Assembly: GCA_037128175.1 (NCBI GenBank)
Contig: JBAXWY010000042.1
Location: forward strand, 1 to 25,925
Direction: 5' to 3'
Length of the DNA: 25,925 bases
DNA from: Methanothrix sp.
Lineage (GTDB): Archaea; Halobacteriota; Methanosarcinia; Methanotrichales; Methanotrichaceae
The notes under the pieces are model-generated. The model saw nothing but the letters and a program-made list of their open reading frames with translations, ran no database searches and had not been told where the DNA came from. This document shows, piece by piece, positions 13,572-19,072 of this stretch; the first letter of the stretch is position 1; every line of letters starts with the position of its first letter. The translations under genes were made by a program, and so were the position numbers.

Positions 13572-14510
13572 TTATGCCCTCTCGGAGAGTACAGTCAGCT
13601 TCACCTGTGGCACCAACCGCTCGAAATCGTCCTTTTGGGCCAGGGCCGTACCCTGATGTAGAGTGGTAGCCGTTCCGGCTGCGGCGGCATAGACCAGGCA
13701 TTCCTTCAGACTCTTGCCCTGCATCAGGCCGCTTATGAAGCCTGCCACGGAGGAGTCTCCCGCTCCAATGGTGCTCTGCACATCCACATTGGGCGGCACG
13801 GCCAGATACTCATGACCTTCCGAGACCAGCAGGATGCCTTTTCCCCCCATGGATACGAGAACGATTCTTACGCCCTGCCGGTTGATCTCTCGGGCGGCAG
13901 CGCAAATCTCATCCAGCCCCTTAAGCTCTCGGCCCACCAGCTCGGACAGCTCATGAATATTGGGTTTGATGACATCAGGTCGGGCCAAAATTCCGGCGCG
14001 AAGGGCAACGCCATCCACATCCAGCACCACGGTGGACTGGCACCTCTTTACTATTGTTATTATCTTTCTGTAAATCTCAGGGGTGACGCCCAGAGGAAGG
14101 CTGCCTCCGATGGCCACCAGATCGCTGCAAGGCAGCCTTTCCAGCAGCTCCACGAACTCCATAAGCTCGGACGCCTTTATCTCCGGGCCGCGAGCATTAA
14201 AGGCCAGTTGTTTTCCCGTCTCCTTCTCGTGGATAATGATGTTGGTGCGCGTCTCGCCTGAGACATGAACAAAATCCGTCTGAATGCCCTCGTTGAGCAA
14301 TCTACCCTCCAACTCCCGGCCGGCGAACCCTCCCACGAATCCTAACGCTATGTTGTCCACGCCCAGATTCTTGAGCACTTTAGAGACATCAACGCTTTTG
14401 CCTCCTGCGAAACTCTTCTCCTCCAAGATACGATTGGATACATCGTCGCGTACCTTCTGGATCCAGAGGGTGCGGTCCAGCGCCGGGTTGAGAGTAATCG
14501 TGTAGATCAT
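13572..14510 (-). CDS. pfkB: 1-phosphofructokinase/LacC family hexose kinase (PfkB)
   Basis: MIYTITLNPALD, AGGKSVDVS, ETRTNI, GGSLPLG, IKPNIHEL, VSMGGKG, STIGAGDS. Confidence 0.92.
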   Translation of the reverse strand: MIYTITLNPALDRTLWIQKVRDDVSNRILEEKSFAGGKSVDVSKVLKNLGVDNIALGFVGGFAGRELEGRLLNEGIQTDFVHVSGETRTNIIIHEKETGKQLAFNARGPEIKASELMEFVELLERLPCSDLVAIGGSLPLGVTPEIYRKIITIVKRCQSTVVLDVDGVALRAGILARPDVIKPNIHELSELVGRELKGLDEICAAAREINRQGVRIVLVSMGGKGILLVSEGHEYLAVPPNVDVQSTIGAGDSSVAGFISGLMQGKSLKECLVYAAAAGTATTLHQGTALAQKDDFERLVPQVKLTVLSERA

Positions 14511-14599
14511 GATTGACTATCTCTGCGGCAAATGTATTGACTCTTTTGCCTGATTTGAGAGCTTTTGGAACGCCAGATGCAAGAAAGACTTTTTCAGAC

Positions 14600-14617
14600 C
14601 GATAATCTTATATTCGT
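14600..14617 (+). promoter_or_regulatory. BRE/TATA promoter of repeat unit 1
   Basis: cGATAATc-TTATATTC, about 30 nt upstream of the hairpin start. Confidence 0.6.
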
Positions 14618-14637
14618 TTAATGTCGTTATGATTTTA

Positions 14638-14698
14638 AGCAAAGGTCGAAAGATCACAATCCCTCCCAAGGATTCGACTTTTGCTCCCTCCCATTATT
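14638..14698 (+). ncRNA. Candidate sRNA 1: hairpin with CU-rich anti-SD loop
   Basis: Stem GCAAAGGTCGAA (14639-14650) / TTCGACTTTTGC (14673-14684), loop containing ATCCCTCCC, 3' tail TCCCTCCCATTATT. Ends are approximate. Confidence 0.6.
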
Positions 14699-14719
14699 AA
14701 CCACGTTGATCGCCTAAGG

Positions 14720-14737
14720 CGAAAAGCTTATATTCGT
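14720..14737 (+). promoter_or_regulatory. BRE/TATA promoter of repeat unit 2
   Basis: cGAAAAGc-TTATATTC. CTTATATTCGT is identical to unit 1, exactly 120 bp downstream. Confidence 0.6.
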
Positions 14738-14757
14738 CAGGCGTCGTAACCAATATT

Positions 14758-14817
14758 GGCAAAAGTCAAGCATTTTATTCCCTCCTACATCATTGGCTTT
14801 TGCTGTTCCTCTTTATT
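14758..14817 (+). ncRNA. Candidate sRNA 2: paralogous hairpin with anti-SD loop
   Basis: Stem GCAAAAGTCAA (14759-14769) / TTGGCTTTTGC (14793-14803), loop containing TTCCCTCCT, tail GTTCCTCTTTATT. Ends are approximate. Confidence 0.6.
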
Positions 14818-14970
14818 CGCCAGTTTTTAATATCGCAGGCAATGTAGCCACCTTTTTAGGACGGGTCTTTTCTCCCGGCATTAGAGAGCGGAGCCTCTGG
14901 CATAGGCAGTGCCGCCAGACGGCAAAGATCCTGGAGCCGTTTCTGCCCGGCACCCTGGGGCGCGGGTTAG

Positions 14971-15531
14971 ATCAGATGCCTGGAGATCTTGAACGGCAAC
15001 GCCAATAACGCGCCCCTCAACTATGCCGCAGGCCTCGATCTTGGCCAGTACGAAGAGGTGCTGGCCGTTCTGGGCCTGAAGGGGGACCTTAAGCGCTGGT
15101 ATCGCGATCAAAGCTACTGCATTGAGATCGCGGCCATAAATTTCAGCAAGAAATATCTGGCCCTTCCCTGGACGAGGGATCTAAATGCCGTAGAGGATGT
15201 GCTGGTAGAGTTCTTCTCAACTCGCACCCACATACCGGGAAAGGCGATAAGAGCGCTGGCATAGCAGCGCCCTGGATGCCTGATCCTGTGCATCACCGAC
15301 ACGCACATCCAGAACCTCTACCAGGAATGGGATGACATCAAAAAAGCCTCGGAAGCGGGCAATTTCGTGCTCTTCTGCATCGACCAGGCCTACAAAGATA
15401 AGCATGTGGAGGAAGCGCTGGCCAGCCTGGGCCGCGTCTACTACATCAACCGCCTGGAGGATCTTATTTCTCTGGTGGTGGATGTCACAGGACGAGCCTA
15501 CTGCGGGGAAAGTTTTATCTCCTCGCAGTAG
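14971..15531 (+). pseudogene. Interrupted gene fragment, VWA-domain C-terminal-like
   Basis: The frame continues past TAG 15262-15264 (QRPGCLILCITDTHIQN...FVLFCID...LGRVYYINRLEDLISLV) to TAG 15529-15531. AINFS and hydrophobic-strand+TD motifs are VWA-like. No good start, and no N-terminal DxSxS motif. Confidence 0.6.
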
Positions 15532-15547: not shown

Positions 15548-15619
15548 GCCGGGATAGGGTAGTGGTTATCCTGAGGGACTGTGGATCCCTCGAGCTGGGT
15601 TCGAATCCCGGTCCCGGCC
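15548..15619 (+). tRNA. tRNA-His(GUG)
   Basis: Acceptor GCCGGGA/TCCCGGC, anticodon arm AGGGA-CTGTGGA-TCCCT with GTG at 15581-15583, T loop TTCGAAT, discriminator C. TATA-like TTTTATCT at 15513-15520. Confidence 0.96.
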
Positions 15620-15775
15620 CCTATTTTGCAAATAGATCACCACTTGGCCATCGTTTCCTGAACCACTGCGGTCTGGCCTGCCGGAAATAGAAACTCGTAA
15701 CCTATTACTATTTTTAGCACCCTTATGAAGTCCGAGCACTTCATTGTAAATCCTCGAATTCGATTTTGCTTCTCA

Positions 15776-15984: not shown

Positions 15985-17109
15985 CTACCCACCCTTTTCA
16001 GTGATGTCGATCAGCTCGGAGAACATGTATATTGCGGAAATTTGCCCTCGTCCTTCACGTAGCACAGTCAGGAGACCTCTATCTCTGAGCGCTTGTACTA
16101 TTCTGGGGGCAGTTTTTTCCGGAATCCTGGATATCTTCGCAAAATATTTTGACTTGAATATAGGCCGAGTGAATATAGCATCCACTGCCCGGATTGAGTA
16201 TTGAGAATGTAAGATCTCTGGAACTTGCAGTTTCATCCGGTTGTACAGCTCCAGGATAGCTCTTGCTTTCTTGCTGTTTTCCTCCGATTGCAGGACGAGA
16301 GCCTCCAGGAAAAACGATATCCATCCATTCCAGTCACCATCTCTGGATATTGCCAGCAGCCGCTCGTAGTAAACGTCCCGATTCCTTTCCAGGTAGGAGC
16401 TGATGTAAAACATGGGCTGGGAGAGTATTTTCTTGTGATACAGAATTATAGGCACGAGCATCCTGCCGATGCGGCCATTTCCATCCCGGAAGGGGTGGAT
16501 CAATTCAAACTGGGCTTTGAGTATGGCCAACTGAACAAGTGGATCTCTTTCTGTGAAGTAGAGGTAATCTTCCCAGTTGGAAAGGGCATCCATTATTACC
16601 TCCGGAGAGGGCGGAATGAATGTTGCCTGATCAATGGGCGTTCCAGGCGACGCGATAAAATTCTGGATACGCCGGATCTCGCCGGGGTCCTTGTAGCGGC
16701 CTCTGACGCCTGTTAGTAGTATTCTATGAAGCTCTCGTATGGTATTGATGCCAAATGGCCGGCCAGCCATCTTCTCGACAGCAGTTCCCATGGCCTTCCT
16801 GTAATTGATGATCTCATGAATGTCGCGAACCTGCGGGCTGTCTGGCGGAACCTGGTTCTTTTCCGGGTCTCCAACATCGGCCTCGTACTGCAAGACCTCC
16901 TCCAGAGATGCCTGAGTTCCTTCGATTCGCGATGACAAGACTGCCTCGCGCGTGGTCTGCGGCGAGAGCAGCACCTCTGGATTGACCATGCCCAGCAGAA
17001 TTCCGTCGTATCGAGCGAAGGCAGCGTTGGCCTTGCCAATGAGGGTTACGTGCCTCTCCCAGTCGATGTTCTTCAACGGCAAGGTATCAGGAATATGGGG
17101 CTTTATCAT
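15985..17109 (-). CDS. Fic family protein (Fic_N + Fido domain + C-terminal HTH-like region)
   Basis: Canonical HPFRDGNGRIGR, N-terminal inhibitory motif SSRIEG, AAGGAGG SD before the ATG. Confidence 0.94.
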   Translation of the reverse strand: MIKPHIPDTLPLKNIDWERHVTLIGKANAAFARYDGILLGMVNPEVLLSPQTTREAVLSSRIEGTQASLEEVLQYEADVGDPEKNQVPPDSPQVRDIHEIINYRKAMGTAVEKMAGRPFGINTIRELHRILLTGVRGRYKDPGEIRRIQNFIASPGTPIDQATFIPPSPEVIMDALSNWEDYLYFTERDPLVQLAILKAQFELIHPFRDGNGRIGRMLVPIILYHKKILSQPMFYISSYLERNRDVYYERLLAISRDGDWNGWISFFLEALVLQSEENSKKARAILELYNRMKLQVPEILHSQYSIRAVDAIFTRPIFKSKYFAKISRIPEKTAPRIVQALRDRGLLTVLREGRGQISAIYMFSELIDITEKGG

Positions 17110-18094: not shown

Positions 18095-19072
18095 TTATTT
18101 TCGACCGGCAAAATTGGCCCTGGCCAGGTACACTGCATCTTCTGCCGGATTCAATCCTTCTTGAGACACATTCACCCAAAGATGCAGATCCCGGTAAGAG
18201 CTGGTGAAGTTTCCTTCCTTGTAGAGCAAAAACTCCAGCTTTTGCAGGTCGCCGGTATGATTGAGAACGTAAGATACCGGCTTTTCCCAGGTCTCGTTGT
18301 GGGCAAGGGTCAGATTCATGCTCAGTATTGGATAGATGAAGAGAAAATCGTCCCTGAAATTGTCTTCAAGTGTAGTGTTATTCACAGGCGTGTTGTTCAG
18401 GGAAATGCTCATGGTGTAGTTAACCGGCGCATATTCGTGATTTACCACGCCCACAATCACAGTGCTGCTATTTCCTGCCAGAACGCTTGTCGGGTAGTCG
18501 TAGGCTTTGCCGCCCGGCCCCAGGATATAAAACTCCGTGAACTTCTCGCCCTGCTTGGGGGTCACTATCACATAAACCAGGGCGGCAATGGATAAAAATA
18601 TGGTTATTATTAATATTACCGTCAGGGCTTTGTCCAGCCGGCTTTTTTCGTCTGCCAGAATTTCCGTTTTCCAGGTGCCAATCGTCTCGCGAAATTGTAT
18701 GGAAAACCGCTCCCCGGCAGGCAGACTCATGCGCCGCCAGTAGGCCGCTGCCGCCATAGCGATGGTGAATATGGCCAGAGATACGACCACCGGAGTCAGC
18801 CTGATTCCCCAGGGTGTGTAGTTGAGGCCAAGGCCAATGAGCGGCACCACGGCAATGGATAGCCCAAAAGCGAGAGCCGTCCTCTCGATTCCTTCCAGAT
18901 CCGCCTTCTTGGGAAAAAGGGCGGCAATGAGTGTGTAGCCCGGCACAAAAAGCACCATTACCAGGCCCAGGGGTATGCGCACCGGAAGAACGGAGAGCGG
19001 CGTCAGAGTAAAGAGCAGTGTGGCTAACGCTACAATTACGGCTGTTAACAGGTCGGACGGGATCTTCATCAT
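18095..19072 (-). CDS. DUF1616 domain membrane protein
   Basis: LFVPGYTLIAALFP, ERTALAFGLSIAVVPLIGLGLNYTPWGI, EKFTEFYILG..GKA.DYP, VGVVNHE, YRDLHLWVNV. Start ATG 19072 just after the upstream stop. Confidence 0.9.
   Translation of the reverse strand: MMKIPSDLLTAVIVALATLLFTLTPLSVLPVRIPLGLVMVLFVPGYTLIAALFPKKADLEGIERTALAFGLSIAVVPLIGLGLNYTPWGIRLTPVVVSLAIFTIAMAAAAYWRRMSLPAGERFSIQFRETIGTWKTEILADEKSRLDKALTVILIITIFLSIAALVYVIVTPKQGEKFTEFYILGPGGKAYDYPTSVLAGNSSTVIVGVVNHEYAPVNYTMSISLNNTPVNNTTLEDNFRDDFLFIYPILSMNLTLAHNETWEKPVSYVLNHTGDLQKLEFLLYKEGNFTSSYRDLHLWVNVSQEGLNPAEDAVYLARANFAGRK

Follow-up and report, generated by a model that had tools for sequence, protein, structure and literature searches.

Tandem putative small RNA genes with anti-Shine-Dalgarno-like loops in Methanothrix and the archaeal family to which they belong

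A 25,925-nucleotide (nt) stretch of Methanothrix sp. DNA (contig JBAXWY010000042.1 of assembly GCA_037128175.1; hereafter, the window) holds two short units in tandem, at positions 14600 to 14817, each combining a promoter-like sequence, a hairpin and a loop that resembles an anti-Shine-Dalgarno sequence. The locus raises the question of whether the pair encodes regulatory RNAs and, if so, what such RNAs would act on. An earlier note, made from these letters alone, had read the units as paralogous genes for small RNAs (sRNAs) of about 60 nt that block ribosome-binding sites. By sequence comparison the two units are members of a large family, widespread in the Methanosarcinia and greatly expanded in the Methanotrichaceae, and we lean, with modest confidence, towards regarding them as two adjacent promoter-bearing genes for ~60-65-nt RNAs that block ribosome-binding sites.

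Architecture of the pair and extent of its family

The window sequence carries CTTATATTCGT at 14607-14617 and again at 14727-14737, an exact period of 120 base pairs (bp), and each copy is preceded by a purine-rich run resembling the transcription factor B recognition element (BRE) and followed by GTCGT; a hairpin begins ~31 nt past the start of the TATA box in both units, which are identical in 71 of 121 aligned columns. Unit 1, on the + strand, begins with a promoter made up of a purine-rich BRE-like stretch and the TATA box (14598-14617; ACCGATAATCTTATATTCGT), followed by a promoter-proximal box and a variable stretch (14618-14634; TTAATGTCGTT, with GTCGT at 14623-14627) and by the predicted RNA (14635-14702). 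This RNA would form a 12-bp stem, P1, with one G-U pair (14639-14650 with 14673-14684), a 22-nt loop (14651-14672) presenting UCCCUCC at 14660-14666, and a C/U-rich tail (14685-14698; UCCCUCCCAUUAUU) with a TTATT end at ~14698. Unit 2, on the same strand, repeats this order with a BRE-like GGCGAAAAG and the TATA box CTTATATTCGT (14718-14737), a promoter-proximal box and variable stretch (14738-14754; CAGGCGTCGTAA, with GTCGT at 14743-14747) and a predicted RNA (14755-14821) whose 11-bp P1 stem, with one U-G pair (14759-14769 with 14793-14803; also inverted repeat I11; 14758-14769 with 14793-14804 when one further pair is counted), would enclose a 23-nt loop (14770-14792) containing UCCCUCCUACAUC at 14779-14791, of which TCCCTCC occupies 14779-14785. 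Its C/U-rich tail (14805-14817) has a TTATT end at ~14817, and a run of five T lies at 14824-14828. The usual archaeal spacing between TATA box and transcription start would place the starts 2-4 nt before the stem, at ~14635-14637 and ~14755. Every feature of the architecture claimed in the earlier note (promoter, hairpin, TCCCTCC loop and C/U-rich tail at a 120-bp period) could thus be located, and the reverse complement of the unit 2 loop, said there to form a complete Shine-Dalgarno (SD) sequence, spacer and start codon, does read AGGAGGGAATAAAATG.

A first BLAST search of the pair against its own genome returned partial matches elsewhere, and a combined pattern and nhmmer search identified nine full copies: the two in the window and one on each of contigs C28, C4, C6, C1, C67, C70 and C27. 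Half copies end contigs C93 (positions 1-51) and C65 (10815-10865). That two contigs end inside sRNA copies suggests that the repeat family breaks the assembly, and this genome probably holds more than nine copies. A covariance model built from eight own-genome copies with a 12-bp stem (R1) gave nine matches in this genome and, over 61 genomes, matched all 36 of the same genus, with 4-17 matches in each. That genus is Methanothrix, to judge by the names under which public sources list close protein relatives. The covariance-model matches to units 1 and 2 score 60.5 bits (E-value 3e-13) and 67.0 bits (E-value 6e-15), respectively.

A second model (R2), which includes four distant members, matched 107 of 151 genomes of the class; all but one of the 151 reach a completeness of 90% or more, with contamination no higher than 5%. 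All 64 genomes of the Methanotrichaceae matched, with 2-18 matches each, as did 35 of 76 genomes in family f3, four of six in f4, three of three in f5 and none in the single genome of f2; most matching genomes outside the Methanotrichaceae carry a single copy. One of the 35 matches in f3, in a genome of genus g6, was rejected as a false positive, located where the coding sequence of a signal-peptide protein begins, and the R2 search found no match in 20 of the 21 genomes of one large-genome genus, the sole match there being false. The architecture therefore recurs nine times in the home genome and hundreds of times in relatives, and this settles that it is more than chance. The paralogous gene family put forward earlier is borne out by these counts, and its reach is wider than had been claimed, extending to four families of the class.

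The tandem arrangement is itself conserved. Both units are found in the same arrangement in nine other species of the genus, and in an alignment of the ten loci each promoter and its ~62-nt RNA are nearly invariant, with conservation collapsing directly afterwards: in unit 1 it does so past CATTATT, a point at which some loci have inserts as long as ~50 nt, and in unit 2 past TTTATT, at ~14817. The unit 1 promoter is invariant except for two or three columns in 10/10 orthologous loci; the unit 2 promoter is kept in 10/10, and its distance to the stem is that of the rest of the family. Within the promoter-proximal boxes, TTTAATGTCGTT (unit 1) and GCGTCGTA (unit 2) are invariant among orthologues, and the next 8 nt and 7-8 nt, respectively, vary. 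One pair of the unit 2 stem is U-G, C-G or U-A depending on the orthologue. Tandem clusters of two or three copies are also present at other loci (for example, L073 and L076). These alignments indicate that the tandem pair is old and has sharp boundaries, and the length of the conserved block agrees with the RNA size of about 60 nt proposed before.

The family alignment comprises 62 members after removal of one reverse-strand duplicate. Of these, 58 carry an AT-rich octamer 31 to 21 nt ahead of the model start and 56 have a BRE-like purine run upstream, upholding the claim that each unit has an archaeal promoter of its own at a fixed distance. The stretch between TATA box and start is also conserved, reading TTGACGTAT in most copies and ATGTCGTT or GCGTCGTA in the window, and may be a regulator binding site. 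Distant single-copy members in three genera have a divergent DUF2117 gene on one side and a convergent sodium:solute symporter gene on the other, and distant members in two other families have different neighbourhoods. Convergent genes follow three copies of the home genome (C4, C1 and C67) and several elsewhere (L057, L061 and L078-L080). A promoter of its own combined with divergent or convergent neighbours points to a stand-alone gene and not to a 5' leader.

This distinction matters for the window, where the pair is flanked by a divergent PfkB-type kinase gene (13572-14510, - strand) and, ~700 nt downstream, by the gene for the histidine transfer RNA (tRNA-His). The units point towards a reading frame (14989-15528, + strand) and tRNA-His, and an RNA-library contig described below suggests read-through from unit 1 to unit 2, as would be seen if the pair were a cis-acting 5' leader or attenuator for that frame and tRNA-His. 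We nevertheless regard such a role as very improbable, since convergent genes lie behind other copies of the family, conservation falls away as soon as unit 2 ends, and no RNA contig from four runs bridges 14817-15016, although contigs cannot show absence. The frame itself, of ~180 codons, is gene-like, with one in-frame TAG (15262-15264); it ends 20 nt before tRNA-His (about 15548-15621), and RNA-library contigs cover much of it. A Pfam search of both its halves gave no family, and it could be a pseudogene, a case of read-through or two genes.

Evidence at the level of RNA

Across the family, the conserved stem consists of GGCRAARGUC paired with GACUUUUGCC and encloses a loop of 22-45 nt with UCCCUCC; in the Methanotrichaceae, the 3' tail, which is single-stranded, holds a second C/U-rich copy, CUCCCUCC. 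Among 40 members, 92.7% of 480 stem cells pair, compared with 33-55% when the partners are slid by one to three columns, and one stem pair is G-U in 18 members, A-U in 16, G-C in five and C-G in one. Double-sided changes occur in 4 of 12 pairs, each in a single sequence, an outcome reached by one of 500 shuffles. The stem covariation that had been described for the two units is therefore real but modest, and, as the sequences are related and were aligned to the model, these stem statistics constitute moderate evidence. The stem sequence is conserved beyond the needs of a helix, even between families. Beside the C-rich motif, UACAUCC or UAUAUCCC is kept in three families, and in some families UACAUCC may pair into a short helix inside the loop, as one fold and an inspection of sequences by eye suggest.

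The distribution of wobble pairs points to the strand. Of 744 stem cells in 62 members, 614 are Watson-Crick, 78 G-U, 12 A-C and 40 other, and this excess of G-U over A-C fits an RNA read from the strand of the promoter. Consistent with this, the + strand fold of unit 1 (-17.7 kcal/mol, z -4.17) is matched by none of 200 shuffles and that of unit 2 (-13.5 kcal/mol, z -2.46) by two of 200, whereas the - strand folds are no more stable than shuffles (z -0.75 and +0.18, respectively). The assignment of the units to the + strand, made originally from wobble pairs in the two stems, thus holds in the family at large.

The same counts bear on whether the copies are DNA-level elements, such as a miniature inverted-repeat transposable element (MITE)-like mobile repeat or a palindromic binding site, and not functional RNAs. 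The presence of 2 to 18 copies per genome, the two contigs that break inside copies and the location of some copies within longer repeats are all compatible with such elements. A DNA palindrome, however, does not predict 78 G-U against 12 A-C cells in the stem; each copy has its own TATA box and BRE at a fixed distance, orthologous positions are kept across species, and the loop is conserved, not the arms alone. We therefore give this alternative very little credence. A MITE or other mobile repeat was rejected on the fixed orthologous positions and the promoter of each copy, terminal repeats beyond the stem and target-site duplications not having been searched for.

A further alternative is that the commonest subtype, to which the window units do not belong, encodes a hydrophobic peptide of ~21 residues or is a dual-function RNA. 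An AUG is present at nt 11-22 in 31 of 62 members, 19 of which would yield peptides beginning with MAIFPSYIQLTFASLL. Such an AUG is missing from the remaining 31, both window units among them, and in the members that have it, one- and two-nucleotide indels place the C-rich motif in three frames (19, 5 and 7 members). With no SD before the AUG, and with a peptide sequence that simply follows from the conserved RNA motifs, coding capacity is hardly a credible explanation. A small-protein gene was discarded as a general explanation, start codon and frame not being kept across the family, and so were antisense small frames behind the SD-start reading of the loop, which by eye do not keep one frame with respect to the conserved stem and so do not form a conserved peptide.

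Two metatranscriptomic studies supply RNA-library contigs over the locus; these are assembled sequences that give no ends, strand or level, and the parts they leave uncovered are uninformative. A 166-nt contig from the first corresponds to 14648-14813 with no mismatches at a depth of 5.9, and a contig from the second covers 14590-14816 with 11 differences. Expression of the pair is thus weakly indicated. As regards the proposed transcripts of ~60 nt, the contigs show only that RNA libraries cover the locus. Eight sequencing runs were on record, all with small shares.

Candidate targets and the weighing of readings

The loop UCCCUCC and the tail CUCCCUCC are complementary to an SD sequence of the GGAGGG type. 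Of 2713 crude gene starts in the genome, ~417 carry GGAGG and 75 carry GGAGGG; the 3' end of the 16S ribosomal RNA, with the organism's own anti-SD, was not recognisable in the assembly. If the sRNAs act on ribosome-binding sites, the C/U-rich loop and the sibling-specific bases 5' of it would pair in trans with the SD-to-start region of messenger RNAs, the stem would hold the loop open, and the pairing would keep the small ribosomal subunit off.

The clearest candidate pair involves a sibling of the window units on contig C1 (G000:C1:136308-136378), whose loop sequence CUCAUUUCUUUCCCUCC is a perfect 17-nt complement of AGGAGGGAAAGAAAUGAG. The 17-nt site, GGAGGGAAAGAAAUGAG, takes in SD, spacer and AUG plus two more bases of a gene on contig C46 (C46:1133-1900), and the same loop complements 14 nt at the next C46 paralogue. 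A match of 17 nt was reached by one of 900 mononucleotide shuffles of nine sRNAs. With its orthologues from 19 other species, the C1 sibling is represented by 20 loci, 16 of which keep the 17-mer exactly and all of which keep its 13-nt core; the 3' side of the C1-type loop varies freely in length and sequence.

The candidate target encodes 256 residues with a signal peptide, is annotated as hypothetical by the sources, and belongs to no Pfam or NCBIfam family. All 59 genomes searched in the genus carry its gene family, with 2-24 matches each. A pattern for the N-terminus, applied over 30 loci, found 32 starts in 18 loci; the 14-nt core GGGAAAGAAAUGAG occurs in 24 of these 32 starts, in 14 of the 30 loci, and the full 17-mer in two, most starts reading GGAGGUGGGAAAGAAAUGAG, which leaves one U-U mismatch in 17. 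Both the C1 sibling and the C46-type start are invariant, with no compensatory changes. The conservation pattern is nonetheless what a seed region predicts.

The region C46:1-5000 (locus L096) and also C15:32195-32974 hold tandem near-identical genes for exported, Cys-rich proteins of 250-280 residues with an MRKLIAVLV start, and the translation start region of this type is unusually conserved across species. The MspA sheath protein, put at 60.9 kDa in the available description, was set apart as an identity for them by size only, against 256 amino acids.

Over the family as a whole, 15 of 39 distinct loops have CAU, the complement of AUG, at 3-9 nt to the 5' side of CCUCC, compared with 16% in shuffles. 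Unit 2 is among them (CAUUUUAUUCCCUCC), and unit 1 has CAC, the complement of GUG. For unit 2, a Liv-type permease gene (C69:3906, PF02653) offers a 15-nt complement, a length reached by 12 of 900 shuffles, and was rejected as a conserved target.

Several observations speak against the proposal that the sRNAs block ribosome-binding sites. Of the nine genomes in which unit 2 is kept, only three were found to have the permease, and in those the pairing is lost; the earlier reading of loop 2 as the complement of an SD and start matched this one permease gene. In a duplex-energy scan of the 2713 crude starts, starts outscored gene interiors, but composition-matched shuffled RNAs did as well as the real sRNAs, which makes the scan uninformative; exact complementarity told more. 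Probes of 22 nt, complementary to the 5' half of the loop and allowed up to four mismatches, were run for eight copies: the window units and five other copies had no site of at least 18 of 22 positions in their own genome. Only the C1 copy has a convincing probe site; three other copies gave single matches at the four-mismatch limit, and units 1 and 2 and the copies on C67 and C27 gave none in this genome.

The conserved motif UCCCUCCUACAUCC has no exact site outside sRNA genes in this genome, and in three near-complete genomes (one or two contigs each) its complement has no trans site above a reversed-pattern control. The matches with zero or one mismatch that were compared lie in sRNA genes (four one-mismatch matches in G005 and one each in G027 were left uncompared), and two-mismatch matches turn up at roughly the rate seen with the reversed pattern. 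The stem sequence and UACAUCC are conserved past what an anti-SD would need, and the covariation is thin, its four double-change pairs each depending on one sequence. On the transcript side, flanking genes have similar contig depth and DNA carry-over is possible, unit 1 lacks an oligo-T terminator, and one contig spans unit 1 into unit 2; with no terminator and such a contig, the RNAs may not be 60-nt primary transcripts.

The conservation that an anti-SD leaves unexplained would suit RNAs that work mainly through a protein, with the stem and the CCUCCUACAUCC loop as its binding site and with a decoy, sponge or scaffold function to which the likeness to an anti-SD would be secondary. The stem GGCAAAAGUCGA is almost unchanged over four families, rather than covarying; UACAUCC or its variant is kept in three families, and no complementary trans site accounts for it; and a high copy number suits titration. 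No candidate protein was identified, however, and a protein site does not predict that the 17-nt loop segment of the C1 sibling, exact in 16 of 20 species, should complement a conserved start region, nor that the 5' loop flanks should differ between siblings and be conserved within orthologues. We consider a mainly protein-mediated function unlikely, though worth keeping in view.

Blocking of ribosome-binding sites is the reading we find best supported, if by a limited measure, on the basis of one conserved sibling-target pair and of analogy with known RNAs. What the sequences show is the gene family with its promoter geometry, hairpin, strand and conservation, and one conserved complementary pair of a sibling and a start region; transcription, the RNA ends and the block to translation are what we infer. 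As to the earlier proposal, the C1 sibling provides a conserved complement from SD to AUG and a 17-nt loop segment of the kind expected if variable loop flanks confer specificity, whereas the window units themselves have neither a conserved nor a specific target. A broader scenario, which we offer as speculation and consider doubtful, is that up to ~18 sibling sRNAs share one ancient hairpin scaffold, conserved throughout the Methanosarcinia, each carrying a 13-17-nt guide against a particular start region, and so form a programmable set in which one sibling silences a multi-copy family of exported proteins, with the stem and UACAUCC recruiting an unknown archaeal RNA chaperone or nuclease that would be a functional counterpart of Hfq.

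Relation to known RNAs and implications

A scan of the whole window with Rfam 15 at the gathering score returned only a tRNA, at 15548-15619. Over 14400-15100, with E-values up to 10, the only match was SNORD46 on the opposite strand, at 14.1 bits against a cut-off of 40 (E-value 6.3); neither unit matched any model, those for cuckoo RNAs and C/D-box sRNAs included. Literature searches on Methanothrix and Methanosaeta sRNAs found no paper describing such RNAs. The family is therefore a real sRNA family, undescribed in Rfam and in the literature searched, and it probably belongs to a kind already known, that of sRNAs that mask ribosome-binding sites.

Three bacterial groups bear comparison. The LhrC1-5 sRNAs of Listeria are multi-copy, partly tandem and redundant siblings in which UCCC motifs, in a loop and in a single-stranded stretch, pair with AG-rich SD sequences; the likeness is one of design only, LhrC being bacterial, with other promoters and terminators and no known homology to the present family in sequence or structure. 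The alphaproteobacterial cuckoo (CcsR) RNAs are multi-copy tandem hairpins with anti-SD-like CCUCC loops that are co-transcribed with a small protein gene. Their loop motif is CCUCCUCCC, compared with UCCCUCC(UACAUCC) in the present family, which is archaeal and has a BRE/TATA promoter for each unit. The comparison with cuckoo RNAs drawn in the earlier note accordingly stands as a likeness of design and falls as to membership, given that no Rfam model matches. The RoxS/RsaE sRNAs of Firmicutes, which are single-copy and target SD sequences through unpaired C-rich motifs, are bacterial and unrelated in sequence to the present family.

Closer in phylogeny, sRNA41 and sRNA154 of Methanosarcina mazei are described in the available accounts as masking ribosome-binding sites (PMC5867862, PMC6560208, PMC9170634). 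According to those accounts, sRNA41 and loop 2 of sRNA154 resemble the present RNAs in coming from a methanogen of the same class, in being intergenic with a promoter of their own and in the occlusion of ribosome-binding sites proposed for them. The comparison was made by description only: sRNA41 has been tested experimentally, unlike the present family, which is known from sequence alone, and the present family is multi-copy, with up to 18 siblings on one shared hairpin scaffold. The available text of a differential RNA sequencing study of Methanolobus psychrophilus reports 195 sRNAs, nine of them cold-induced and conserved; it carries no sequences, and overlap with the present family is possible.

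Several observations concern the surroundings of family members. A region of ~1.6 kb around one sRNA copy (C28:12200-13800) has no convincing reading frame and is repeated, with 76-93% identity, on C65, C93, C6, C8 and C55. For the commonest sRNA subtype, conservation between species extends over the 60 nt that follow it, which suggests that its transcript may exceed 70 nt. Many copies of that subtype (for example, L002 and L004) also have a conserved block, GGTGGAGAAAGGTCTTTTCTAACTTGAAG, immediately before the BRE; in the window, the sequence GGGTCTTTTCTCC at 14856-14868, downstream of unit 2, resembles this block. DUF1699 genes encoding 144 amino acids (C28:13829-14263 and C4:92610-93044, both - strand) are located 325-692 nt upstream of two sRNA copies, whose strand they share, and a third paralogue (C39, ~18534-18977) has a promoter closely like that of window unit 1, TTTATATACGTTAAATGTCGTTAT; this placement and this promoter may point to co-regulation with the sRNAs. 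Elsewhere in the window, positions 15985-17109 (- strand) encode a protein of the Fic/DOC family that has the domains Fic_N and Fic.

For only a few regulatory RNAs of archaea is the target or mechanism known; two reviews name about three such sRNAs in methanogens, all from one Methanosarcina strain (PMC5867862, PMC6560208). The present family, found in every Methanotrichaceae genome searched (64/64) and in three further families, has a simple and recognisable architecture and brings with it a concrete pairing of an sRNA with a start region, that of the C1 sibling and the C46-type genes. A covariance model for it would annotate hundreds of loci, and the strong conservation of its stem may be the mark of an archaeal sRNA-binding protein not yet known. 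Gene regulation has been little studied in Methanothrix, one of the major sources of biogenic methane. If the siblings do form a programmable set, they would control translation across the genome of the main methanogen that uses acetate.

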